Part shown: piece by piece, positions 43,557 through 62,472 of the stretch
Layout of the letters: each line of letters starts with the position of its first letter
Numbering within the stretch: position 1 is the stretch's first letter
Made by a program: the position numbers and the translations under genes
Source: a virus
DNA length: 64,000 nt
Reading direction: 5' to 3' (one strand)
UHGV virus genome: UHGV-1351772
Notes under the pieces: model-generated
Database searches by the model: none
The model's input: only the letters and a program-made list of their open reading frames with translations
What the model was told of the DNA's origin: nothing

Positions 43557-45045
43557 TCTCTGTTCCTCGCATGGTAATAATGGTCGAGTTCAGCACCGTC
43601 AATAACACACGGGCTTCTACGTTCGGAATCAGTTTATTAATGTCATCGATAACACTCGGCGGTAACACCGGCTTATCCCACCACCAATCAGGAACGTCCC
43701 ATTTCGGGAATAACCACTCAATTAATACTTTCGCTGCCTTCGGATATAACTGTAATGGCCAGAGGTTCATTCCACGCCAGTCAAACATGACCGATTCGGT
43801 TAAGTAATAACCCTTATTTACTTTCAGGTCACGACCTTTAAGCGAAAACGTATTTCCTTCCCAATGGTAGAAACGCGGTTCGATAATCTGTCCCTCTTCG
43901 AACAGCTCGATACGGAAAACACCCGTCTGTCCTGTCGGGTCGATCGCACGACAATGTTCGATATACGGTAGCAACGCTTCGTTCCACTCGTAAGGTAAAT
44001 CTTCCGTAGACATCACCTTCGGCGATAACATGTTGTCCGGTTCAAAAACAACATCTGTACCGAAAATCGGTAGGAGTTTATCTTTCAACGGGGAATGTGT
44101 ACGGTGGAACTGTTCTGTCGGTGACAGTAAATACGGTAAACGAATATACTGACGGGTTTCGTTAATCCACCAGGTTGAATCGAGATTCTTCTGTTGTGGA
44201 TGACGATACACCAGTTCTTCGTTAGACACCCACGGTGGGTCTATCTCTGGCCAATATTCATCAGGCAGCGGTGTCTGATTGATGATATACGGATACGAAA
44301 CCACAATCTCTTCAGGGCGCTGATAAGAGAAACGGATAACGAACGTTGCTTCCCAGTGGTTTTCATCTTTATCCCAAGCCGGTGTTTGAACATCGTATAC
44401 CGTTTCTAAACGCGTAGGTGCGTAACGTACCGCAATGGTTTCCTGACCGCCAGCAACATTAGCTGCGCGAAATACATCGGGCGTAAAATACGCTTTCAAA
44501 TAGGCTTTAAAATCGTCAAACGTTGATACTCGCGTTCCCGCAGCAACGTAGCAGGCATTCAACAATTTTAAAGCAGGTTTAGGGATATAATAGAACGCTT
44601 CTGACTCCGTCATAGTCGAATAACGACCCATGTCCACTAACGAGTCTAAACGGTTCGTCCAGCGCAATAACTCGTCACGTGAGGCACTGGTACGTCGTAA
44701 CGTTACTGTTACGTTATACATCGTTCTAACGGGCCAGGCGCGTACCTGATCGACGGAGTTTTCAAAGAAGTACGGTTCAGCCTGCTGACCAACCTGACGA
44801 TTGATTCTGGCCCACTCATCGCGTTCTTCTTCTACTTCAACGTAAACCTTTTCAGGTGAACTGTACTCTACTTCAGTACCGTCACCTAAAGTAGAATCCG
44901 GTTGATGGGCGCTATTGAATTCATCGAGGAAAACAACCGCTGCTGTATCAATACCAGACTCATTAAGTACACGTTGTATAACACCATCGATTATTGGTTT
45001 GCGAATGGTCGCGTCTAACGACGGAATTTCAAAATACTGTTGCAT
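43537..45045 (-). CDS. hypothetical protein (502 aa)
   Basis: ORF track. Confidence 0.5.
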   Translation of the reverse strand: MQQYFEIPSLDATIRKPIIDGVIQRVLNESGIDTAAVVFLDEFNSAHQPDSTLGDGTEVEYSSPEKVYVEVEEERDEWARINRQVGQQAEPYFFENSVDQVRAWPVRTMYNVTVTLRRTSASRDELLRWTNRLDSLVDMGRYSTMTESEAFYYIPKPALKLLNACYVAAGTRVSTFDDFKAYLKAYFTPDVFRAANVAGGQETIAVRYAPTRLETVYDVQTPAWDKDENHWEATFVIRFSYQRPEEIVVSYPYIINQTPLPDEYWPEIDPPWVSNEELVYRHPQQKNLDSTWWINETRQYIRLPYLLSPTEQFHRTHSPLKDKLLPIFGTDVVFEPDNMLSPKVMSTEDLPYEWNEALLPYIEHCRAIDPTGQTGVFRIELFEEGQIIEPRFYHWEGNTFSLKGRDLKVNKGYYLTESVMFDWRGMNLWPLQLYPKAAKVLIEWLFPKWDVPDWWWDKPVLPPSVIDDINKLIPNVEARVLLTVLNSTIITMRGTENAQSEA

Positions 45046-52299: not shown

Positions 52300-53598
52300 A
52301 TGAGTGACGAGACAGATAAGAACGATCCGGGGTATGACCCGAATACTGATTACGACGATTCTCTCCACAATCCGAATAATGCGGACGCAGTGCCTTCGGT
52401 CGCAGGGTATTTCGACGGACGGATTAGTAATGCTAACCCCCCGACGCCTTACGACGCTAATACTGAACTTACGGCATGGAACGATCGTATCCGTCTTACT
52501 GTAGGTTTGGGTCTTGCTGCGCAGCGTTTGACCAACCCCTACATGGGGTTCAACCATATGATGGCGTCTAACCCCACGCCAATCAACCGAGAATACGGTG
52601 GACTAACTTTTATTACCCGGCCCGATTTTAACCTGTGCTACGACAACATTGCTAAGTCTCGTAAAATGTCGAACATGGCAATGCAGCCAAAGGACTCCAT
52701 AGATTATTCGATTTTAGCTGCGCTTGACCCCGATTTTGAACTCGGATTTACGGACGCACCTATGGAAAACGGTAGGCGGAAGAATCGCTTAGGTACGCCG
52801 TTTATGCCTCAAGTAAAATTCGATAATCTACAAGCGTTCATACCAATACTCAGTACGCAGCTGATTAGCCTTAGTGGTGCACCCGATCAATCTATTGATA
52901 ACTGGATGGCAAGTGAAGGTTTAATGCGTGAACAGTGGGGGATGGTTGACTCTACCCACGAAGTTAACAACAGCTTTTCCATCAGCATGTCATTAAACAA
53001 CCCCTATGGCGACCCATTGATGAAAATGATGGGTGTGTGGCTGGAGTATATGTCTGGTGTGAAAATGGGTAAATTCCGTCCGAAAATGCGTAACTCCATT
53101 CAACGCAGAATCGATTATCAGTCGCGAATCTACGGGATGCGTTACGATGCCTTAGGGAACATCACCCGTTTCTGGACGATTTGCGTCGCTTGGCCGATGA
53201 ACGATAACGCGGGACAAATGGCGAACGTTGATAACTCCAAACCGCAGTTAAACGACGACGTTACGATTACTATTAACTGGCAAGCTATCGGTGCGCGGTT
53301 TAACGATCCATTATACATGGAAATGTTTAACCGCACCGTTTCCATTTTTAATCCGGATATGCTCCCGCAGCCAGGCTCTATTCAATCGGGCAACTTCATC
53401 CCGATTGCTAGTGACCAATTAGTACCCATCGCGCCACAATTGCTGCCGTTGTTTAACTATTACGGTTATCCACACATCGATTCCGTGCGACGCAAACTTA
53501 CCTGGTATGTTTACCAGGCAGACTACCAACATATTCTCAAGAAAGCGGGATTACTGGATAACGCTAATGCCGCTTCACTACCGACAGGTAATAACTGA
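52300..53598 (+). CDS. hypothetical protein (432 aa)
   Basis: GGAG RBS; ATGA coupling to downstream gene. Confidence 0.5.
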   Translation: MSDETDKNDPGYDPNTDYDDSLHNPNNADAVPSVAGYFDGRISNANPPTPYDANTELTAWNDRIRLTVGLGLAAQRLTNPYMGFNHMMASNPTPINREYGGLTFITRPDFNLCYDNIAKSRKMSNMAMQPKDSIDYSILAALDPDFELGFTDAPMENGRRKNRLGTPFMPQVKFDNLQAFIPILSTQLISLSGAPDQSIDNWMASEGLMREQWGMVDSTHEVNNSFSISMSLNNPYGDPLMKMMGVWLEYMSGVKMGKFRPKMRNSIQRRIDYQSRIYGMRYDALGNITRFWTICVAWPMNDNAGQMANVDNSKPQLNDDVTITINWQAIGARFNDPLYMEMFNRTVSIFNPDMLPQPGSIQSGNFIPIASDQLVPIAPQLLPLFNYYGYPHIDSVRRKLTWYVYQADYQHILKKAGLLDNANAASLPTGNN

Positions 53599-56552
53599 TG
53601 AGTTCTACGACTTACGATACTTTGGCAAAGAACATATTGTTGTTTGCCCACCATCCGGCAGCGATGCAAACACTGCTCTTGAATCAGCTTCTGGATGTAG
53701 AAGACGCCGAAGGCCAAATAGTGTTACGTGACCCAACAGACCCTGTTGTTTATTTGGCGGAAATGGGGACAATGTTGGGCCATGCAACGCTTATGGGGTT
53801 GCAGGAATCAGTGCCAAAGACATTTCCATCGATGGCGCAAACGTACGATGACCTGTTCCGACATATGTCCGATGTGGACTACGTTGATGTGTTCGCCCAA
53901 CCTTCAACCACCGAGCTGTTGTTATTAATCGATGTTGATAGTTTAATCTCCAAGGCGTACCCTTTACAGATTGCGGGTGTGCGTAAAGTTGTTATCCCAC
54001 GAGACACAGTTTTCACGGTGTCAGGTTACACCTTTGCCATCCAGTACCCGATTGAAATCAGGGTACTTCCTTACGGTACCAATGAAAACCCGGCGTTTCA
54101 GGTTCTTTGGATTACCGAAACACAGTCACCTATTTCTCCTGTGTCGACGAATGCGCTGGATTGGGAGTTGACGTCGTCTAACACCACGGCCTCGCAACTA
54201 CTGGCAATCCATATCCCGGTCATGCAGTATGCGGTGAAAAACGAAAGTGACACCGTTGCTGGGAAAAATACCTTTGTCATGACCCGTCATTACACTAACA
54301 AATTTTTCTACGTAAGGGTATGGATGAAATCAACCAACGATAACAAGTGGGTTGAAATTCAGCATACGCACAGTCGTGACGTTTACGACCCCAACACCCC
54401 AACCGCGTTAATCCAGGTCGGTGACGGTGTTATACGGTGTACTATCCCCTCGATCTACATGGCGAAGAACTTGGTCAGCGGCGAAATTCGTATGGATATC
54501 TACACGACCTTAGGGCCTTTAAGTGTCGATATCTCGGCTTATCCGTCTGACGAATACACGTTCACGTTGCGTGATTTAAACGGCGAATATGACGAAAACT
54601 ACGTTAACCCGATTAAGAGTTTTTCCATCAAACAGATGGCTGCAAAAGCAGGTAAAATGTTGTCAGGTGGTCGTAGCCAGCTCACCTTCGAAGATTTACG
54701 TACACGTGTAGTCAATAACGCTGTAGGTGCACGAAAACTCCCTGTAACGGAGAAACAATTAGAAGCAACGGTTTCTGACTACGGTCTAACGTTGTCGAAA
54801 CCAAACGACTATGTTACTAGCCGTACATACTTCTTAACGGCACCGATGCTCGAATCGACAATTCCCAATGTCAGTTCTCCCATCGGGACAATCACGGCAC
54901 CGTTCTATTTCTCCTGGAATGAATTGGTTAATCTACCAACGGTAAAGGTTAACGGTAATCGCCTGACGATTCTTCCTGACACACTTTATCGGTTCACCGA
55001 CACCAGCTTGACGGTTGATGCGGAGATGACGGTCTTGGCAAAAACCATGCGTAAAGAAGATTTGATTAATGCGGCCAACGCTAATCGTTATCTCTTTACA
55101 CCATTCCATTACGTTGTGGATATCAACAACAAAGCCATTGACGTTCGTATTTATCAATTAGATAAACCGACGTTAAACTCCAAACGCTTTATCGCCACTA
55201 ACGTAAGCACGGAACTCAGTGTGGTAACAGCCGACTACACTATCGAAAAGACCGAAGCCGGTTATGTATTGCGTACCGTAACGAAGTCAGAGGCACCTTA
55301 TCAAGCACTGACCGACGATCAAGTTTTTGCACAGCTATCGTTCCGTCCACGTAACGCAGACAACACTTTAGCGTACATCAACGGTACGTTAGTCGGTAAA
55401 CAGGGTAGTGAGCGCGTATGGGAATTCCTGCTGGAAACCAACCTAGACGTTGACCGTAACGACGAATTAATGCTAACGAATACACGCATTAGTAGTAGCA
55501 CACCCACGGAAACGCCTGTACCGCTGATGACGGACTTCAACCTGTTCTACGGCTGCACCGGTTATTATCCTGGTAATTACGAACGTGCGGAAATGGATGC
55601 GTTAATCACTGCCCCGTCACGCGATGCTATTGGTATTACTCACGAGATTTTCAAAATCGAATTGGGTAAAGCAATGACGTACTACTGGCGTAAAGCGCGT
55701 GCTGTTACTGACAGCATTAACTACCAGTATTACGAAAAAGACGTGATGGCAACGTGGGAAATCGATGTGGTTAAACGCGATGAGAACGGTGTACCAATCT
55801 ACACCTACGACGCAGGTCGCACGCCACCACTTCAGATTACGTACGAGCATCGTAAAGGTGATCCTAAACTTGACGAGGCTGGACAACAGATCGTCCTACA
55901 TCGTGAAGGAGACTTAGTTAAAGACGAATTCGGCAATCCGAAAATTGCGAAATCGCGTTCTATCAAATTCCGTAGTGAGATGGCGGTATTCGATGCGCGA
56001 TATAAATTCGCGACGACGCCTTCTGCAAAATCGTATCTGAACGAGGTTATCGAAAACATCGTTAACTACGTTACGGTAATACTGCCAACTTTGAAGCCTA
56101 TGTTGTTAGAACGTACCGAAGGTTACTTTGTGCCGATTACAACAATGGGGTATATCGACGCCCGTACCGAGGACGGGGTAGTAACGCCTGTCCCTGCGGA
56201 AAACCAGTTCACCGTGCGTTATTACCTAACAGCTGCTAACCGTAATAACACCGAGCTCTTAACGCAGATTCGTAAGAAAACGTCTCAGGTTATCAATGAT
56301 TACTTGGGTAGTCATCTAACAATCTCTGCAACAGAAATCGGTAATGCATTGAGTGAAACCCTCGATGCGTCTATTATCGGTGTTGAACTCGATGCTATGG
56401 GACCAGATAAAGACATGCGTCTCTTTACCGTTGTTTCGGAAGCATCAAGAGCAACTATAGGTAAAAAGCTGGACATTGAGGCCAGCGGCGACATCGGACT
56501 TAAAGACGATATCGTTATTGTCTATAACCGTCACGATACTACCGCCGATTAA
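53598..56552 (+). CDS. large hypothetical protein (984 aa), possibly structural
   Basis: ORF track; no catalytic motifs recognised. Confidence 0.5.
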   Translation: MSSTTYDTLAKNILLFAHHPAAMQTLLLNQLLDVEDAEGQIVLRDPTDPVVYLAEMGTMLGHATLMGLQESVPKTFPSMAQTYDDLFRHMSDVDYVDVFAQPSTTELLLLIDVDSLISKAYPLQIAGVRKVVIPRDTVFTVSGYTFAIQYPIEIRVLPYGTNENPAFQVLWITETQSPISPVSTNALDWELTSSNTTASQLLAIHIPVMQYAVKNESDTVAGKNTFVMTRHYTNKFFYVRVWMKSTNDNKWVEIQHTHSRDVYDPNTPTALIQVGDGVIRCTIPSIYMAKNLVSGEIRMDIYTTLGPLSVDISAYPSDEYTFTLRDLNGEYDENYVNPIKSFSIKQMAAKAGKMLSGGRSQLTFEDLRTRVVNNAVGARKLPVTEKQLEATVSDYGLTLSKPNDYVTSRTYFLTAPMLESTIPNVSSPIGTITAPFYFSWNELVNLPTVKVNGNRLTILPDTLYRFTDTSLTVDAEMTVLAKTMRKEDLINAANANRYLFTPFHYVVDINNKAIDVRIYQLDKPTLNSKRFIATNVSTELSVVTADYTIEKTEAGYVLRTVTKSEAPYQALTDDQVFAQLSFRPRNADNTLAYINGTLVGKQGSERVWEFLLETNLDVDRNDELMLTNTRISSSTPTETPVPLMTDFNLFYGCTGYYPGNYERAEMDALITAPSRDAIGITHEIFKIELGKAMTYYWRKARAVTDSINYQYYEKDVMATWEIDVVKRDENGVPIYTYDAGRTPPLQITYEHRKGDPKLDEAGQQIVLHREGDLVKDEFGNPKIAKSRSIKFRSEMAVFDARYKFATTPSAKSYLNEVIENIVNYVTVILPTLKPMLLERTEGYFVPITTMGYIDARTEDGVVTPVPAENQFTVRYYLTAANRNNTELLTQIRKKTSQVINDYLGSHLTISATEIGNALSETLDASIIGVELDAMGPDKDMRLFTVVSEASRATIGKKLDIEASGDIGLKDDIVIVYNRHDTTAD

Positions 56553-56569
56553 GAAAAAAATAATAAAAG

Positions 56570-56597
56570 TTACCCTACTCCTTCGGGAGTAGGGTAA
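56570..56597. terminator. bidirectional terminator, UUCG tetraloop; identical sequence repeated at 61930-61957
   Basis: ttaccctactcc ttcg ggagtagggtaa flanked by A-run and T-run between convergent genes. Confidence 0.7.
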
Positions 56598-56603
56598 TCT
56601 TTT

Positions 56604-58274
56604 TTAATCAATCAATTTATTGAACTTCCCACCTTTCACAAGTGGGTTGGACTTGGCACGCTTCAACACCGTTGCCATAGACCCTGCGGCCTTGCACCAC
56701 ATGTTAATCATGTTTGCACTGTGCGCAACAGAATCCCAGACATTGCGGTCAGGGTTTAACACCATCATCGTGGTCAGCTCACGACCGTGAAGGTTAAAGT
56801 TTTCCCCTCGCGTCACTTGGTCTTTAAACGCCTGTTCCATCGCCTGCCATTTCTGACTGTCGACGCCAGAACGTGATTGGCGTGCCATCTCTTTCAAGGT
56901 TTTTACAACCTGATCGACACGTTTCTCCAACACCTTATACTTGTCTAGCGCAGTATTCGCTACGCCATCAGAGATACCACTACGTGCCAGTGTAATCAGA
57001 CATGCCAACAGCTCACGGTAATCCCCGTTACTTAAGCTCAACTCCTGGCGCATCATCTCCAGGTTTGTTGTGGAGCCAAAGAAAGAGTTAGCACCGATTG
57101 ATGCAATCATCCAACCGTTGTCTAATTCACGTGTGGTATAACCGAGAAGCTCAACCTTGTCTTTTACACGCAAAATTGGACCAGGACTACCTTTCTGTCG
57201 TCCAAATTCCGTGGCAGTATATTCAATTCGGCCATTGATCTCGCCTAACGCACGAACCAGATGCACAGCGGCGACTTGGTTCTCTTGCGATGTGCCTACC
57301 TTCGGATTATTCGACAGGTAATACGTTTTGATGTCTTTCAGCGACTGGTCTAAGTCCTGAAGCGCACCGGCAAAACTGTCAAGAATCGTGCTCATTAAGT
57401 TGAACTGAATATCTGACGGAATGTTCACCCCAGCACGTTTCACATCAGGCGGCAAACCGTTATAGACTTCCTCAGCAACCCCGAAGTCAAATACACCGTA
57501 ACCGATGTTCGTCCGAAGCAGCGTATCGAGCAGATCCTGAATAACCTGCAGCTCATTCTGCCGACGTTTAAGATGGTTCTTAAACGTATCGATAAACGGT
57601 GATTTACCTAACGCAGCGGCGAGTTTATTTAGAAACTCTTCAGCTTCCATGTTCACGAAAACGTCGTCAGCCAGCGAAAGAGATAACTCCAGGTTGCTTA
57701 ACTCGCTGTCTTTCAAACCTTTTGACAGTACCAGATAAACTTCTTTCAGTACGGTTGTTTTCAGGCGCTCTGTGAAAGGAACATCGGCCAACTTCTCTTC
57801 CAGTTTCTCGCGATAGTCGTTCCCGTCAATGTTCGCAGCACCTGCAAAAGGAACGGCGTTGCTGATAATCCAACTGAGGATTTTCATTATCCCCATCATC
57901 ACCATCACGATGAGGCTAATCTTACCAAAATTAGCGTAAGACTCTAATGCCACCACCGTTTCTTTCTGGTGTGTTTTGGAATAATTCGACGTCAGGACAC
58001 TTTGTACAGCCTTTGGGATCGTACCAGGACGCAACGATTCAGTCGCTACAGCAACATCACGGTTCAACCCTGCTTTACGTATTTCCCGTAAGATCGCTTC
58101 AATCTGCGCGATAAGGCGAGAGCCGTAAATCAGGTCTGCTTCATTACGTTGCATGTAGAGATTGAGTTGGCTAACAGAATCGATGCGTTCTTCCATGCGC
58201 TGTTCTAACAGTGCAGGAAGTTCATCGAGTTTCCATTGCGGTTGCGCAATGTTTGCTGTCATCTCCATACTCAT
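56604..58274 (-). CDS. membrane-associated hypothetical protein
   Basis: Internal ATG 58274 (ATGA overlap with upstream stop); hydrophobic segment ISLIVMVMMGIMKILSWIISNAVPFAGAA. Confidence 0.4.
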   Translation of the reverse strand: MSMEMTANIAQPQWKLDELPALLEQRMEERIDSVSQLNLYMQRNEADLIYGSRLIAQIEAILREIRKAGLNRDVAVATESLRPGTIPKAVQSVLTSNYSKTHQKETVVALESYANFGKISLIVMVMMGIMKILSWIISNAVPFAGAANIDGNDYREKLEEKLADVPFTERLKTTVLKEVYLVLSKGLKDSELSNLELSLSLADDVFVNMEAEEFLNKLAAALGKSPFIDTFKNHLKRRQNELQVIQDLLDTLLRTNIGYGVFDFGVAEEVYNGLPPDVKRAGVNIPSDIQFNLMSTILDSFAGALQDLDQSLKDIKTYYLSNNPKVGTSQENQVAAVHLVRALGEINGRIEYTATEFGRQKGSPGPILRVKDKVELLGYTTRELDNGWMIASIGANSFFGSTTNLEMMRQELSLSNGDYRELLACLITLARSGISDGVANTALDKYKVLEKRVDQVVKTLKEMARQSRSGVDSQKWQAMEQAFKDQVTRGENFNLHGRELTTMMVLNPDRNVWDSVAHSANMINMWCKAAGSMATVLKRAKSNPLVKGGKFNKLID

Positions 58275-58714
58275 ACCAGCTCGCCTCGCGTTTCTTCCAT
58301 ATAGAATTTCACCGTTTCCATGAAACGTTCCAGCCACAGATTAACGGTATCCCATACATCGTCGCCCAAGGCTTCATTGAAAATCTCACGGACAGAGAAG
58401 TTTTCAATAGCGCGACGGCCGCCCCAAGCGCTATCGTAGCGGTTACAAAACAGTGCCACTGTCAAATCTTCAATACTGCCCAGATCGACACAATAAAGCT
58501 CGTTTACGTCCGAAACAACATTTTTCATCAGCGGGCGAAGCTTTAGCTGCGACACTTCATTCGACCCAAACGGGCCATTATCGGGCATATCGGTATTATA
58601 AGCCAAAGCGAATGCGACCAGGCCAGTCAGCGCGCGTTGTGCCTGTACACCTTTACCCTCGTTCGTACGTTTAAAGTCCAGAACCAGGGAATTTAAAGAA
58701 ACTTTATGCGTCAT
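58271..58714 (-). CDS. hypothetical protein
   Basis: ORF track. Confidence 0.4.
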   Translation of the reverse strand: MTHKVSLNSLVLDFKRTNEGKGVQAQRALTGLVAFALAYNTDMPDNGPFGSNEVSQLKLRPLMKNVVSDVNELYCVDLGSIEDLTVALFCNRYDSAWGGRRAIENFSVREIFNEALGDDVWDTVNLWLERFMETVKFYMEETRGELV

Positions 58715-58728
58715 GATTTTACCTTTAC

Positions 58729-60063
58729 TTATTCGACATTAAACATGGCTGAAGCAATACGAAGATCGTTCGACATATACTTCCCAATCGCACGCTGGTA
58801 ATCAACTGCAGCACGTGAGCGACGACCCTTCGGCGTTAAAGTATTCCAGATAAACTGATACAAGTTATCTTTATCTTTTACGGTTTCTAATAACTTGTCG
58901 ATAACCGCAATACCATCTAAAATACGTTTACGTTGCTCGTTAGCCGCCTTCGTATTTTTGTCTTTAATCGTATTGAGTTCTTCAACGAGTGTACGTCGCA
59001 TTGCCTCAAAACGCTGCTGCGGCGGATCGTAAATGGTGTTATCCGGGTCATTTAAGATCATTCCGAACGTCACGGAAATCACTGGAATAATTGGAATCGT
59101 AGAAGAGACTATTAACGCGGTCACGCGGAAAAGTTCTACTGTCAAATGGACACCCATGTTCATATACGCTGAGTTCCGCAGCAAATAGAACGAACTGGTT
59201 TCCATTTTATACAGTGCAGAGGCCAGATAAGGAGCGCCTCCGAAACGGGAAGCAAAATCATCCGCAGCACGTTCCCACGTCCTGTTAGCAAAGCCTTGAC
59301 TACCGCTAATGAACGGACGATCTAATAACAGCTGTGTGACCAAGTGCATGTAGACGTTTTCTTTTTTGTACTCAGTACAAATCGTTTCTGGCTGATTCAC
59401 TTTCGTGTTCAGCATCTTCTCTACGTCTTTAACAATGCGCAAGCGGACAGTTTGGTCTTCTGTTTCCATGATGCGGTTAGCCGCAGCATCTGCCAGCAAA
59501 TCAGTCACCACGGTACGCATTAGCGTACGGAAATAATAATAGATGTGGCCGACTTCATGAAGAATCACCGAGGCGATTTCCAGATCGGTCAGATTTAATT
59601 TTTCCAGCAGCACCGGGGTAAGATAAAGCGGAGAACCCACTTTGCTTAAATCGCCACTGATTTTTGCGCTGCTGTCATCGATTGATGTGTTCAGTTCGTT
59701 TTCTTTGATGAACTTACTGTACATATCCAGGTCTTTGTTACCTGCGTACAGTGCGCGAGTCATCGATGCAATGATTGGACTGTTTGCATCCAATTTCGGT
59801 GGTTCTACGCCTGCAAAAGCAACGTCAACAAGACCCAGTTCGCTACCGTTCTTAAAGTGAATCGTAATGCCGATATTCTTAAATACCCAATCCGAAACCC
59901 CGGCACTTTCGTAGCCAGCAGGACTGAAATCGCCTGCTCCACGAAACTTAGCAATAATATCAGCCAATTCTGCCAGCTTCTTTTTGTCTTGGAATTTAAT
60001 CGATTCTGCGGCTACAACCTTTGCATCCGCAACTGATGCAATGTGATTTTGCCAATATCCCAT
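58729..60063 (-). CDS. putative zinc metallopeptidase (HExxH) with C-terminal hydrophobic segment
   Basis: ASVILHEVGHIYYYF motif; ATG 60063 with AAGGAAA RBS preferred over track start 60096; single-motif call. Confidence 0.35.
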   Translation of the reverse strand: MGYWQNHIASVADAKVVAAESIKFQDKKKLAELADIIAKFRGAGDFSPAGYESAGVSDWVFKNIGITIHFKNGSELGLVDVAFAGVEPPKLDANSPIIASMTRALYAGNKDLDMYSKFIKENELNTSIDDSSAKISGDLSKVGSPLYLTPVLLEKLNLTDLEIASVILHEVGHIYYYFRTLMRTVVTDLLADAAANRIMETEDQTVRLRIVKDVEKMLNTKVNQPETICTEYKKENVYMHLVTQLLLDRPFISGSQGFANRTWERAADDFASRFGGAPYLASALYKMETSSFYLLRNSAYMNMGVHLTVELFRVTALIVSSTIPIIPVISVTFGMILNDPDNTIYDPPQQRFEAMRRTLVEELNTIKDKNTKAANEQRKRILDGIAVIDKLLETVKDKDNLYQFIWNTLTPKGRRSRAAVDYQRAIGKYMSNDLRIASAMFNVE

Positions 60064-60134
60064 TTGTGTTTCCTTTTGAGAAATTACATTACCCACAAAT
60101 CAGTATAGCAGCCGCTAGATTTGAGAGTGAAATC

Positions 60135-61916
60135 ATGAATAACTATTACGCACCGGAAGACGTTATTGCCAAGGAGTGCAAGTTTGTTTCTTACGCAACC
60201 GATCAGCAGAAAGAAAACGACTTCGTGCTCATAAAGGAGGTCGTCCATACTAAAGATGGCAGATATATCCCACGAATTGTCATGCGTGAAAATCTGAAAC
60301 GGCCCATCTACATTACTTTACCACAACATCGTAACCACAAGGAAAAGAAAGAATACGAAGAACGTAGTAAGTGCCAGGAATATTTAACAACGGACGTAAT
60401 GATGTCCTCAACCATACAGATGGGTCTGGGGATTCGTTTTCCCGATAAAAAGAAACCACTCCGTCAGGTTTGTACTTCACCGTATGTTTACTGGGCTGAT
60501 TTGCCCATTACTAGCTGGATTAAAGAAAAGTACATACGTAAATGGCCTAATGCTGTTTCACCTAACCGCATCTGTGTATACGACGTGGAAACTCGAGAAG
60601 AAGACAAGTCTCGAGACCCCTGGATTATGAGTTTTGTTTTAGACGACGAAATTCATTTCTTTGCTACGAAAGACTACGTCACCCGTTGCGGACGTGAAAA
60701 CTTTGAAGCGCGACTCGTCAAACGTGCTCAAGAATTGCTTTCTAAAATCGCTTTTCGTGGAAAAGACGAGAACGACAACCCTATCGTTAAATACAAAAAC
60801 GTTATCGACGGTTACAAAATCTTCGTTTACGAATGTCTCAATTCGGGTTGTTGTATTCAACGGATGTTTGAGGAAATTCACCCTCGTCTCCCTGACTTAC
60901 TCGTCGCATGGAACCACGAGTTCGATATTTCACGTATGTTAGAAGCTTTAGAAGCAGCGGGCATTCCACCGGAAGACGTCTTCTGTCATCCAGACGTGCC
61001 GAAACAGTACCGTCGTGTCTACTTTAAGAAAGACGAAGCATCGAAGAAAACGGAATCAAAGTCATTAACAAAAGCGCCTTCGCAACAGTGGCACATTCTT
61101 TATTGTACGGCGTCATTCTACTGTGTAGATGCAATGTGTCTATTCCGTTCATTGCGTGTACACGAGGGACAACGCCCCTCTTACAAACTTAACGCGATAC
61201 TGGAAACCGAGTTGGGTTTAAACAAGTTGGACTTACCAGAACTACCCTACGAGGAAAAGTTGGAATGGCACTTAAAGGCGCAGAAAGATTTCCCGTTAGA
61301 ATACTGCGTTTATAACATCTTCGATAACTTGATGATTGTTCTGCTGGATAAAAAGACGAACGATCTGTCTTCTGCTATTTCAGTTTTGGCGGGTTATTCG
61401 ATGTATGATATTTTCCCTTCTCTACCGAAGCGAATCTGTATTGCATACACGTATTACCTCTATGAACAGGGTCTGGTTATCGGTTGTGTGGGTAGCGCGA
61501 TGCGTAACGATTTCGACAATGAAGTCATTGGGACGGATGGTTGGATTGTTACATTGACTGCGTGTATGAACGCAGAGAATGGGCTACGAAACATCATCAA
61601 GGAAGTTGATGATTTCTACACGGCTTTCCGTGGGCAAACTGCGGATGCTGACTTAACCCAGGCATACCCATCTGCAACGAACATGATGAACCAGTCTCGT
61701 GAAACAACGTTAATCGAGCTATTGAGCATTCACGGTGTTCCTGAAGAGGTGCGGCGTCGTGTCGGTATTAACCTTACTGCGGGGCGTGTCAATGCAATGG
61801 AAATCGCGACAGATTTCTTCCTGTTGCCCGATAAAAACGACGTCTTAGAAGCTTTTCTACGTAGACAAGGAGAAACGATTACCGATCCTTTTGAATATAT
61901 CAAAGCTGCAAAGTAA
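60135..61916 (+). CDS. family-B DNA polymerase, N-terminal portion (3'-5' exonuclease domain through motif A)
   Basis: Exo I ICVYDVETRE, Exo II VAWNHEFDISRML, Exo III YCVYNIFDNLMI, motif A DADLTQAYPSA with T4/RB69-like spacing; motifs B and C absent; ATG 60135 used because track start 60021 overlaps divergent gene. Confidence 0.6.
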   Translation: MNNYYAPEDVIAKECKFVSYATDQQKENDFVLIKEVVHTKDGRYIPRIVMRENLKRPIYITLPQHRNHKEKKEYEERSKCQEYLTTDVMMSSTIQMGLGIRFPDKKKPLRQVCTSPYVYWADLPITSWIKEKYIRKWPNAVSPNRICVYDVETREEDKSRDPWIMSFVLDDEIHFFATKDYVTRCGRENFEARLVKRAQELLSKIAFRGKDENDNPIVKYKNVIDGYKIFVYECLNSGCCIQRMFEEIHPRLPDLLVAWNHEFDISRMLEALEAAGIPPEDVFCHPDVPKQYRRVYFKKDEASKKTESKSLTKAPSQQWHILYCTASFYCVDAMCLFRSLRVHEGQRPSYKLNAILETELGLNKLDLPELPYEEKLEWHLKAQKDFPLEYCVYNIFDNLMIVLLDKKTNDLSSAISVLAGYSMYDIFPSLPKRICIAYTYYLYEQGLVIGCVGSAMRNDFDNEVIGTDGWIVTLTACMNAENGLRNIIKEVDDFYTAFRGQTADADLTQAYPSATNMMNQSRETTLIELLSIHGVPEEVRRRVGINLTAGRVNAMEIATDFFLLPDKNDVLEAFLRRQGETITDPFEYIKAAK

Positions 61917-61929
61917 AAAAAAATAAACG

Positions 61930-61957
61930 TTACCCTACTCCTTCGGGAGTAGGGTAA
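61930..61957. terminator. bidirectional terminator, identical copy of the 56570 hairpin
   Basis: ttaccctactcc ttcg ggagtagggtaa. Confidence 0.7.
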
Positions 61958-61962
61958 TACTT

Positions 61963-62472
61963 TTATGCCGCGTTGAAGCAGTAAGCCAGTAAGTGTTGCA
62001 GCTCTGGATCGGTCACACGTTGTACCAAACGTCCAACGTTGTCACGCTGAGCAAAGTTTGCTTTATCCTGAGAATTTGCGAAACGTACTAACATGTTGAT
62101 AAACACGACGTATGTTTCACGTTCAGCGGAATCGTAAAACCAATCTAAATGGTAGTTCACATTCGGATAGTAGAAGATACCACGTTTGTGTTTAATTGCA
62201 GCTTCAACGAACACGTTGAACGCATCAATGAATGCTTGGCCACGCAGTTCAAATAACGTACGGAACGATTGATGCAGCTTACGGAAAGCGTCGTCAGCTT
62301 CTGGGGTATCTTTCGGTTTATTTTGGCTAATTGCCCCGCCAGCCTCATCGAGCTGAGTAGCAATAAGTCGCACCTGGTACGCATCATCCTGACTGTAAGT
62401 TACCGCATTTTCCTCAGCGCGTCTTACCGCTGATGGGCGTTCATCTTGTGTCGAAATATCTTTAGTTGCCAT
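61963..62472 (-). CDS. hypothetical protein
   Basis: ORF track. Confidence 0.45.
   Translation of the reverse strand: MATKDISTQDERPSAVRRAEENAVTYSQDDAYQVRLIATQLDEAGGAISQNKPKDTPEADDAFRKLHQSFRTLFELRGQAFIDAFNVFVEAAIKHKRGIFYYPNVNYHLDWFYDSAERETYVVFINMLVRFANSQDKANFAQRDNVGRLVQRVTDPELQHLLAYCFNAA

Follow-up and report, generated by a model that had tools for sequence, protein, structure and literature searches.

A conserved gene cassette in a phiKZ-like jumbo phage probably encodes head-internal proteins, among them a predicted M48-like zinc metalloprotease

We analysed a 64,000-nucleotide stretch of the virus genome UHGV-1351772 (the window) and find that three adjacent minus-strand genes, which we refer to as A, B and C, are the counterparts of a trio of head-protein genes in phiKZ-like jumbo phages. 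The main outcome for the window is a correction. A sequence-only reading had proposed that this operon is a membrane module acting in lysis control, superinfection exclusion or anti-defence, but the orthologous proteins are head proteins, two of which are cut by a prohead protease, and the cleavage motifs are conserved here. Being the counterpart of a head-protein trio, A-B-C would therefore not serve in lysis or exclusion as a membrane module, and its products are probably head-internal virion proteins, of which A very probably has the core of an M48-like zinc metalloprotease.

The open reading frames of the window place A, B and C close together on the minus strand, and a terminator closes the unit. 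The features of the locus are as follows.

58729-60063, minus strand: gene A, 444 aa from its ATG, carrying the HEVGH motif
58271-58714, minus strand: gene B, 147 aa
56604-58274, minus strand: gene C, 556 aa
60064-60134, no strand assigned: divergent intergenic spacer, 71 bp, between A (minus) and a DNA polymerase fragment gene (plus, ATG at 60135)
56569-56598, no strand assigned: bidirectional intrinsic terminator with a 13-bp perfect stem, a 4-nt loop and T-runs on both strands

The coordinates of the three co-oriented reading frames and the ATGA coupling of B and C agree with the earlier description; the start ATG of C shares ATGA with the B stop codon (a -4 overlap), and this overlap is also kept in related loci. 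Because residues M1, G2 and W4 of A are invariant among homologues, we place its start at the ATG, which has AAGGA 5-6 nt on its 5' side, and not at an alternative GTG at 60096 that would yield 455 aa. The divergent region is present at 60064-60134, although it is 71 bp long and not 72 bp as had been given, and sigma-70-like sites within it are not above chance (6 observed, 6.4 expected). phiKZ-like phages use their own RNA polymerases for transcription. The terminator sits between the convergent genes C (minus) and a gp48 homologue (plus, 53598-56552), and its description as duplicated is correct since the 20-nt core CCTACTCCTTCGGGAGTAGG recurs identically at 61934-61953, for which the chance expectation is 0. 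The UUCG loop ascribed to it holds for the plus-strand reading, whereas the operon's own strand reads CGAA.

The order of genes in this region (vRNAP subunit, gp43, divergent DNA polymerase, A, B, C, and convergent gp48) is that of SPN3US gp42-gp48, and the same order is present in Stratton gp57-gp64. The A-B-C trio corresponds to phiKZ gp84-86, Goslar gp67-65 and CR5 gp46-48. The cassette is found in about 77-79 of 80 IMG/VR jumbo-phage loci, and in most of the 80 an A-family gene is followed by a gene for 130-168 aa and then by one for 340-585 aa. The position of this small-then-large gene pair, directly downstream of a gp84-like gene and adjoining the DNA polymerase gene, is conserved in the window.

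The location of the products is taken from these orthologues. Mass spectrometry of purified SPN3US virions and of heads without tails classed gp45, gp46 and gp47 as 'Head'. The prohead protease trims gp45 and gp47, whose spectral counts are similar in virions (1016 and 1313, respectively) and in heads (1024 and 1225). Components of the vertex-binding complex were identified by cryo-EM as gp85 (a dimer) and gp86 in phiKZ (PMC11297242; PDB 8Y6V), and as gp66 and gp65 in Goslar (bioRxiv 10.64898/2026.04.21.720040). In both phages these proteins are resolved on the inner capsid face beneath the pentons, with the gp85-type protein as a dimeric core and the gp86-type protein as the peripheral part. 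Aberrant empty Goslar capsids are without the vertex complex, which the authors regard as not an integral component of the shell. The A homologues, phiKZ gp84 and Goslar gp67, are absent from both published capsid maps. In the window, [A/S/G]-x-E motifs occur at the positions mapped in the orthologues, as AAE-20 in A and as ATE-79 and ALE-111 in C, each followed by S. A, B and C are probably all head proteins, an assignment carried over from orthologues sharing 41-71% identity with them. SPN3US gp45 is listed as 'head, unknown function', and we found no assignment of a protease fold to it in the literature.

Four elements of A bear on its function.

59545-59559, minus strand: HEVGH, predicted zinc-binding/catalytic motif, A residues 169-173 (H169, E170, H173)
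59260-59274, minus strand: ERAAD, with the predicted third zinc ligand E264 in an M48-type ExxAD (from sequence alignment and invariance)
60004-60063, minus strand: predicted N-terminal propeptide, 20 residues, MGYWQNHIASVADAKVVAAE, with a prohead-protease cut after AAE-20
59050-59151, minus strand: hydrophobic segment, A residues 305-338, with a 19-residue Kyte-Doolittle maximum of 1.96

Sequence and modelling both make it very probable that A is an M48-like zinc metalloprotease. HEVGH is invariant (100%) in 140 diverse members of the A family, among which the median identity is 25% and most positions other than the catalytic and zinc ones vary; HExxH is present in 145 of 146 representatives, and the lone exception is a C-terminal fragment. 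In the structure model HEVGH lies within the helix at 160-200, and in alignment it coincides with HELGH of ZMPSTE24. A third zinc ligand, for which a search had been suggested, is predicted at E264: both E264 and D268 are 100% invariant in the 140 members, and the ERAAD stretch aligns to ZMPSTE24 residues 412-442 (RRFEFQADAF...), which contains the glutamate zinc ligand of that enzyme. In M48 enzymes the third ligand is a Glu in ExxAD, 60-90 residues downstream of HExxH; the spacing of 91 residues between HEVGH and E264 is slightly above that of the solved enzymes. The three-dimensional model gives the catalytic domain a fold of the M48 (gluzincin) type, which was one of the folds named for checking in the sequence-only reading. 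The A family comprises 2015 cluster representatives at E<=1e-3, and its profile matches ZMPSTE24 at E 1.3e-4 with both motifs aligned. Pfam M48 is the sole recurrent family match (18 of 40 A-family members at E<=0.01, best 2e-5), although A itself scores 17.0 bits (E 0.0053) against PF01435, below the gathering cut-off of 20.3, and is therefore a distant M48-like relative and not a family member by the curated rule. The predicted core zinc and catalytic residues, H169, E170, H173 and E264, do not vary within this phage family, large as it is.

The predicted propeptide cut in A matches the position mapped in SPN3US gp45, which is cleaved at ASE-20 (PMC10052503), and 99% of the 140 A-family members retain E20 in the context [S/A/G]-x-E followed by [A/S]. 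By eye, neither a signal peptide nor a hydrophobic segment is present at the N-terminus of A, which is occupied by the propeptide. The hydrophobic stretch described as C-terminal is real but lies about three-quarters of the way along the protein, with about 105 more residues, modelled as helical, after it. It includes a 24-residue charge-free run with central prolines, and in the model two helices, 303-320 and 325-337, form a hairpin in this region. In 96% of the 140 members the 19-residue hydrophobicity maximum exceeds 1.6, and the family-mean peak falls at residues 311-338. Inside a lipid-free capsid such a segment could be a buried protein-protein interface.

Homology identifies B as the orthologue of SPN3US gp46 (69% identical) and as a member of the Goslar gp66/phiKZ gp85 family. 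When the B clade was compared with the Goslar gp66 clade by hhalign, sets without overlap gave 94.1% (E 1e-7) and looser sets 99.5%, although against the single phiKZ gp85 sequence the match was weak (12%). An iterative HMM built from B reaches Goslar gp66 at 4.5e-26 and phiKZ gp85 at 5.3e-13, and the B profile gives one match per locus in 79 loci with 0 in a reversed-database control.

Two elements define the N-terminal part of C.

57942-58274, minus strand: predicted N-terminal propeptide, 111 residues, with sites at ATE-79 and ALE-111, each followed by S
57846-57935, minus strand: hydrophobic helix, C residues 114-143, at the N-terminus of mature C (Kyte-Doolittle maximum 2.31)

On alignment C is the orthologue of SPN3US gp47 (41.5% identical) and, via iterative profiles, a probable member of the phiKZ gp86/Goslar gp65 family. 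The match with gp47 starts at 44887, the position to which the gp47 start was revised by mass spectrometry. An iterative HMM from C matches phiKZ gp86 over its full length (3.7e-17) and Goslar gp65 (7.6e-38), with one reversed-sequence match at 1.7e-4, and 65 of the 85 C-profile matches lie directly downstream of a B match; direct hhalign of C with gp86 and gp65 was not significant, and fold searches were uninformative. SPN3US gp47 is cleaved at AVE-75/79 and ALE-111, and residues E79, S80, L110, E111 and S112 of C are invariant in 19 homologues. The propeptide of C is about 72% identical to that of gp47 and the mature part about 31%, as compared with 69-84% for the genes neighbouring C. C had been called a membrane protein; the hydrophobic segment of about 30 residues is real, but the label depends on a single helix just past the propeptide cleavage site. 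A hydrophobic segment is present in 71% of C-family members, mostly at residues 75-125, and in 88% of these an [ASG]xE motif lies within 40 residues upstream of it.

We consider it likely that A-B-C is a conserved set of head-internal genes from a phiKZ-like (Chimalliviridae) jumbo phage in the SPN3US/Erskinevirus lineage, and that it functions along the following lines. Transcription of the cassette would run away from the DNA polymerase gene and stop at the bidirectional hairpin terminator. The propeptides would bring A and C into the prohead and would then be removed by the prohead protease, after which dimers of B and mature C would assemble beneath the vertices. A would be carried in the head at a copy number similar to that of C, and physically linked to C-type proteins, as suggested by natural fusions of a C-like domain to an A domain (P0137, P0176, P0188, P0123, P0167 and P0127; 0 matches in reversed controls). 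A would be a latent, active zinc protease acting most likely after head assembly, at or after ejection, when its hydrophobic segment would lodge in either the inner membrane of the host or the early infection vesicle, where A would cleave a target. A more speculative version, which we think rather unlikely, is that A and C, stored as a pair beneath the vertices, leave together with the genome and enter the inner membrane of the host. The protease would there cleave envelope or defence proteins of the host, or aid in pinching off or maturing the lipid vesicle of early infection, which in nucleus-forming phages shields the injected genome. If this were true, the divergence of mature C relative to its neighbours would reflect an arms race with the host.

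It is extremely improbable that A and C are instead produced during infection and placed in the host inner membrane, not in virions, with the protease there setting lysis timing, excluding superinfecting phage or destroying a defence protein. Each does carry a segment of strong hydrophobicity, membrane proteases occur among the M48 relatives (HtpX and Ste24), and one database entry labels a member of an identical cluster 'integral membrane metallopeptidase'. However, the orthologues of A and C are recovered from both purified virions and heads without tails, and the prohead protease cuts them; the cleavage motifs are conserved here, and E20 is almost always kept; the B and C families are seen within capsids by cryo-EM, no N-terminal signal peptide is evident in A by eye, and the cassette lies among virion-protein genes and not lysis genes. 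For the orthologues, this explanation is largely refuted. The SPN3US authors proposed an ejection role for gp47, and A and C may both be ejection proteins that stay in the head after maturation, leave with the DNA and use their hydrophobic helices to insert into the host envelope or early vesicle, the vertex position of C being mere storage, which we regard as possible if on balance unlikely. SPN3US gp47 is essential, 47(am1) particles look normal but are non-infectious, and mature gp47 opens with a predicted transmembrane helix (PMC5694885), although a defective vertex complex predicts a non-infectious particle equally well. Hydrophobic segments are widespread in the A and C families (96% and 71%), but phiKZ gp86 is without a hydrophobic helix; the empty aberrant Goslar capsids without vertex complex fit ejection, whereas in heads filled with DNA the capsid wall carries phiKZ gp86 and Goslar gp65 in ordered form. 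The low identity of mature C relative to its neighbours is the pattern of a host-exposed protein. Against this, the phiKZ inner-head proteins gp89 and gp162 stay within the phage head, and in the literature we found neither a report of injection of A, B or C orthologues nor an injection assay for gp45/gp84/gp67 or gp47/gp86/gp65.

It is improbable that A works within the capsid as another head protease, dependent on zinc, which would trim or release internal proteins (the vertex complex, inner body or ejection proteins) once the main prohead protease has done its work or at the onset of ejection. In SPN3US heads 14 cleavage sites have been mapped, and every one conforms to the A-x-E motif of gp245, the prohead protease of the same type as phiKZ gp175, so that no orphan cleavages are left for a second protease, and about 80% of the head proteins are uncut (PMC10052503); the conserved hydrophobic segment would also be left unexplained. 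Some observations do accommodate it, in that the A orthologue gp45 is packaged in SPN3US at a spectral abundance near that of gp47, fusions to C-like domains put A beside vertex-type proteins, and propeptide removal could equal zymogen activation; M48 enzymes are described as kept latent by plugs (PMC13655028). Highly improbable, too, is a structural pseudo-enzyme, with the M48-like fold serving as a head scaffold and no catalysis. The score of A is under the Pfam M48 threshold, but H169, E170, H173, E264 and D268 are all 100% invariant at a median identity of 25%. Pseudo-enzymes usually lose catalytic residues.

The A family spans phiKZ-like jumbo phages of at least 12 host genera. The literature and most database records label its proteins 'hypothetical' or 'head, unknown function', yet they have a predicted M48 zinc-protease core. 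A packaged protease of this type, perhaps membrane-inserting, is a mutable candidate for building of the genome-protecting vesicle in early infection, and amber-mutant genetics and virion proteomics already exist in SPN3US.

SPN3US (Seoulvirus) gp45-gp46-gp47 have the same order, orientation and neighbours as A-B-C, with identities of 70.6%, 69% and 41.5%, respectively, and with cleavage motifs at equal residues (E-20 in A; E-79 and ALE-111 in C), and mature C begins with a hydrophobic helix as does mature gp47; the window phage, whose genome measures about 225 kb, belongs to another lineage. In phiKZ (gp84-gp85-gp86) and Goslar (gp67-gp66-gp65) the equivalent trio adjoins the DNA polymerase gene, direct BLAST shows gp84 and gp67 to be homologues of A, and a 4-nt overlap joins Goslar gp66 to gp65 as it does B to C, although phiKZ gp86 is shorter (422 aa) and Goslar gp65, unlike C, is a 934-aa internal duplication. 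With peptidase family M48 (Ste24/ZMPSTE24, HtpX, BepA and Oma1) A shares 16-20% identity over 126-168 aligned residues, but unlike in those enzymes its N- and C-terminal helical domains are large and phage-specific, and it has neither the multi-span membrane chamber nor the TPR domain seen among them; A would, by analogy with its orthologues, be packaged in a lipid-free capsid, whereas M48 enzymes are made as cell-envelope proteins. Phage T4 loads the Alt enzyme and anti-restriction proteins into its head by the capsid-targeting route, for injection. The T4 internal proteins (IPI-III, Alt) have no sequence or fold relationship to A, but they carry a short capsid-targeting sequence where A has its 20-residue N-terminal propeptide, predicted to be cut by the prohead protease, and the SPN3US authors explicitly liken the propeptide to these 10-20-residue T4 sequences.

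The three minus-strand open reading frames that the sequence-only reading had placed at 56604-60063 were confirmed with trivial corrections, and we refer to the genes and their products as A, B and C. An upstream GTG was rejected as the start of A because M1, G2 and W4 are invariant among homologues. The features of the region are as follows.

58729-60063, minus strand: A, 444 aa counted from the ATG
A residues 169-173: HEVGH motif
A residues 305-338: strongly hydrophobic stretch
58271-58714, minus strand: B, 147 aa
56604-58274, minus strand: C, 556 aa, its ATG overlapping the B stop codon as ATGA
C residues 114-143: strongly hydrophobic stretch
71 bp between A and the DNA polymerase fragment gene (ATG at 60135): divergent spacer
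56569-56598, both strands with T-runs: predicted terminator hairpin with a 13-bp perfect stem

The divergent region is real, although its length is 71 bp rather than the 72 bp given previously. The hairpin at 56569-56598 is predicted to be a bidirectional terminator between convergent genes, and its earlier description as duplicated is borne out by a 20-nt core, CCTACTCCTTCGGGAGTAGG, present in identical copies at 56574-56593 and 61934-61953, where chance would give none. Both copies lie at convergent junctions, one between C and a gp48 homologue and the other between the DNA polymerase fragment gene and a gp43 homologue, and the hairpin looks like a bidirectional terminator used twice. A sigma-70 promoter scan gave no excess over the chance level, and is uninformative here because the phage transcribes with its own polymerases.

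The region has ~70% DNA identity to Erwinia phages Stratton and phiEaH2, the products of most neighbouring genes are 69-84% identical to Salmonella phage SPN3US proteins, and the genes follow the order of SPN3US gp42-gp48 and Stratton gp57-gp64: vRNAP subunit, gp43, DNA polymerase fragment, A, B, C, gp48. A 225-kb IMG/VR genome encodes a protein 99% identical to A, and the clusters holding the exact A and C proteins have 384 and 123 members respectively. The exact proteins are also present on ~223-228-kb contigs inside the assemblies of many Salmonella, Shigella and E. coli isolates; sequencing of such isolates thus often captures the phage as well. These identities, the synteny and the enterobacterial occurrences together indicate that the window derives from a phiKZ-like (Chimalliviridae) enterobacterial jumbo phage. 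The polymerase gene (60135-61916, plus strand) is the orthologue of SPN3US gp44, with 75% identity; as gp18 and gp44 are described in the SPN3US paper as the two DNA polymerase subunits, it encodes just one fragment of a split polymerase. The gp43 homologue (61963-62472, minus strand, 169 aa) is likewise unusually diverged, with 47% identity to its SPN3US counterpart compared with 74-75% for the flanking genes, and gp43 is scored as non-virion in the SPN3US supplement. In the Erskinevirus relatives the A and B orthologues are separated by an additional gene of ~124-137 aa (Stratton gp61, L001:5378-5791; phiEaH2, locus L019), which is absent from both the window and SPN3US.

The SPN3US orthologues of A, B and C are gp45 (70.6% identity), gp46 (69%) and gp47 (41.5%), and the match to C starts at SPN3US nucleotide 44887, which is the gp47 start as revised by mass spectrometry. 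All three were scored as head proteins by mass spectrometry of purified virions and tailless heads, and the spectral counts for gp45 and gp47 are similar to each other (1016 for gp45 and 1313 for gp47 in virions, and 1024 and 1225 respectively in heads). The SPN3US prohead protease gp245, which cuts at [A/S/G]-x-E sites, cleaves gp45 at ASE-20 and gp47 at AVE-75/79 and ALE-111 (PMC10052503). Corresponding motifs are found in the window, at AAE-20 in A and at ATE-79 and ALE-111 in C, each followed by S, and close homologues show no variation at these residues. SPN3US gp47 is essential, and amber mutant particles look intact and are non-infectious (PMC5694885). The sequence-only reading had suggested a membrane-associated module that could act in lysis control, superinfection exclusion or anti-defence; such a role at the cell membrane is contradicted by the orthologue virion data and we reject it.

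The C propeptide (residues 1-111) is ~72% identical to that of SPN3US gp47 and the mature part (residues 146-556) only ~31%, against 69-84% for neighbouring genes. A similar disparity is seen even with P0037, a close relative (93% and 59% for the propeptide and mature part respectively). By these comparisons the mature C domain is a fast-evolving outlier.

The same trio is present in phiKZ (gp84, gp85 and gp86, of 413, 149 and 422 aa), adjoining its polymerase gene, and in Goslar (gp67, gp66 and gp65), where gp66 and gp65 overlap by 4 nt as do B and C. In phiKZ, cryo-EM resolves a gp85 dimer and processed gp86 as a complex that lies against the inside of every non-portal vertex (PMC11297242), and Goslar gp66 and gp65 have been placed in the same way, also by cryo-EM (bioRxiv 10.64898/2026.04.21.720040). 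We examined homology to these proteins in a set of 2,293 ORFs taken from part of the window and from 85 related loci. An iterative profile of B picks out a single ORF of 130-160 aa at each of 79 loci, including Goslar gp66 (E 4.5e-26) and phiKZ gp85 (5.3e-13), with no matches in a reversed-sequence control, and hhalign comparison of the B and Goslar gp66 clades gives 94% probability with non-overlapping sets and 99.5% with looser sets. Membership of B in the vertex-binding complex family is thus established at the level of sequence. The iterative C profile finds phiKZ gp86 along its entire length (3.7e-17) and matches Goslar gp65 twice (7.6e-38); 65 of its 85 matches lie directly downstream of a B match, and there is one reversed-sequence match at 1.7e-4. 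No significant result was obtained when hhalign compared the C clade directly with phiKZ gp86 or Goslar gp65 as individual sequences, the C model retrieved only generic helical bundles in fold searches, and phmmer searches of PDB sequences with B and C gave nothing relevant. C is rated a probable member of the same family, its link being weaker than that of B. In Goslar gp65 (L004:6737-9541) the C-family profile matches both residues 1-392 and residues 566-913, and the second unit starts with ALE and then a hydrophobic helix, like the start of mature C. Such a pattern points to an internal duplication, in line with the report that the extra Goslar domain occupies the place of phiKZ gp28 (bioRxiv 10.64898/2026.04.21.720040).

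The assignment of A as a protease had formerly depended on a single motif. A itself scores below the cut-off against Pfam M48 (E 0.0053; 17 bits against 20.3), and the sole NCBIfam match, also sub-threshold, is to HtpX; M48 is, however, the only Pfam family matched recurrently by A relatives (18 of 40 at E<=0.01, the best at 2e-5). In an AlphaFold model built with 28 homologues (pLDDT 75, pTM 0.77), a small sheet (strands within 126-148) is accompanied by a long helix that contains HEVGH, and E264 lies on a helix further along the chain. A profile made from 40 diverse family members matches ZMPSTE24 in the PDB (E 1.3e-4) with the HExxH motifs aligned, and RTWERAADDF of A is aligned to RRFEFQADAF, the stretch that contains the ZMPSTE24 glutamate ligand, thereby locating a candidate third zinc ligand at E264. 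Repeating the word-indexed protein search with the A alignment brought in no additional relatives, so that an exhaustive profile search was needed; it gave 2,015 cluster representatives at E<=1e-3, and nearly all of the matches span the full length. Among 140 representatives with a median identity to A of 25%, G137, H169, E170, G172, H173, E264, D268 and R351 are 100% invariant, which argues for a working enzyme and not a relic, and the prohead-protease site residue E20 is kept in 99%. The 19-residue hydrophobicity maximum exceeds 1.6 in 96% of them, with the family-mean peak at residues 311-338. The recurrent M48 matches, the ZMPSTE24 alignment and the invariant residues uphold the protease call, and A is predicted to be an M48-like zinc metalloprotease. 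We also considered whether A is a pseudo-enzyme, and rejected this as unlikely given the invariance of the putative catalytic residues.

Several observations connect A to C-type proteins. A C-like domain lies directly ahead of the A domain in six fused metagenomic proteins, P0137 (domain E 8e-16), P0176 (1e-10), P0188, P0123, P0167 and P0127; reversed controls gave no matches, and Pfam detected nothing in the added portions, which the C-family profile did match. At several loci a C-like paralogue is just upstream of A. Together with the similar spectral abundance of gp45 and gp47, these arrangements suggest that A moves with, or docks onto, C-type proteins. An unassigned density near Goslar gp65 resembles a different fold, according to the Goslar authors. 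A single 1162-aa ORF in an IMG/VR locus (L085:4231-7719) contains two M48-like units.

A pathway can be proposed from features that are either shown here or transferred from orthologues: residence in the head, propeptides with prohead-protease sites, membership of the vertex-complex families, and an M48-like catalytic core. The propeptides would send A and C into the prohead, a step suggested by the SPN3US authors' likening of propeptides to T4 capsid-targeting sequences (PMC5694885). The prohead protease would then cut off both propeptides, B and C would assemble beneath the pentons, and A would be kept as a latent protease that is active after maturation. M48 enzymes such as HtpX, Ste24 and BepA typically act on membrane or envelope proteins, and it is hard to see what the conserved, charge-free hydrophobic segment of A would do inside a capsid that lacks lipid. 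For these reasons, and because gp245 already explains all cleavages mapped in SPN3US heads (PMC10052503), we hypothesize that A would most likely act after ejection, at the host envelope or the early infection vesicle.

It is possible instead that A serves as a second protease inside the capsid, but this would leave it without orphan cleavage sites to explain. A further reading is that A and C are purely a pair of ejection proteins, extending the SPN3US authors' proposal that gp47 is ejected and bears a transmembrane helix at its N-terminus (PMC5694885). This fits both the hydrophobic helices and the divergence of mature C from gp47 relative to its propeptide and neighbouring genes, although it has to account for the homologues being ordered against the capsid wall.

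Metallopeptidase labels are already attached to relatives of A in a few database records. The Serratia phage Yaphecito record reads 'putative M48 family lipoprotein protease', and a metagenome-derived (MAG) Caudoviricetes protein that shares a 90%-identity cluster with A is called 'integral membrane metallopeptidase'. Literature searches on phiKZ gp84 and on a link between M48 and Chimalliviridae returned nothing, and no paper discussing the label was found. The finding of the sequence-only reading is largely re-explained, and the cassette and its head location are already known from SPN3US, phiKZ and Goslar; within that cassette, A is a little-noticed and testable putative enzyme that nucleus-forming jumbo phages carry in their heads.
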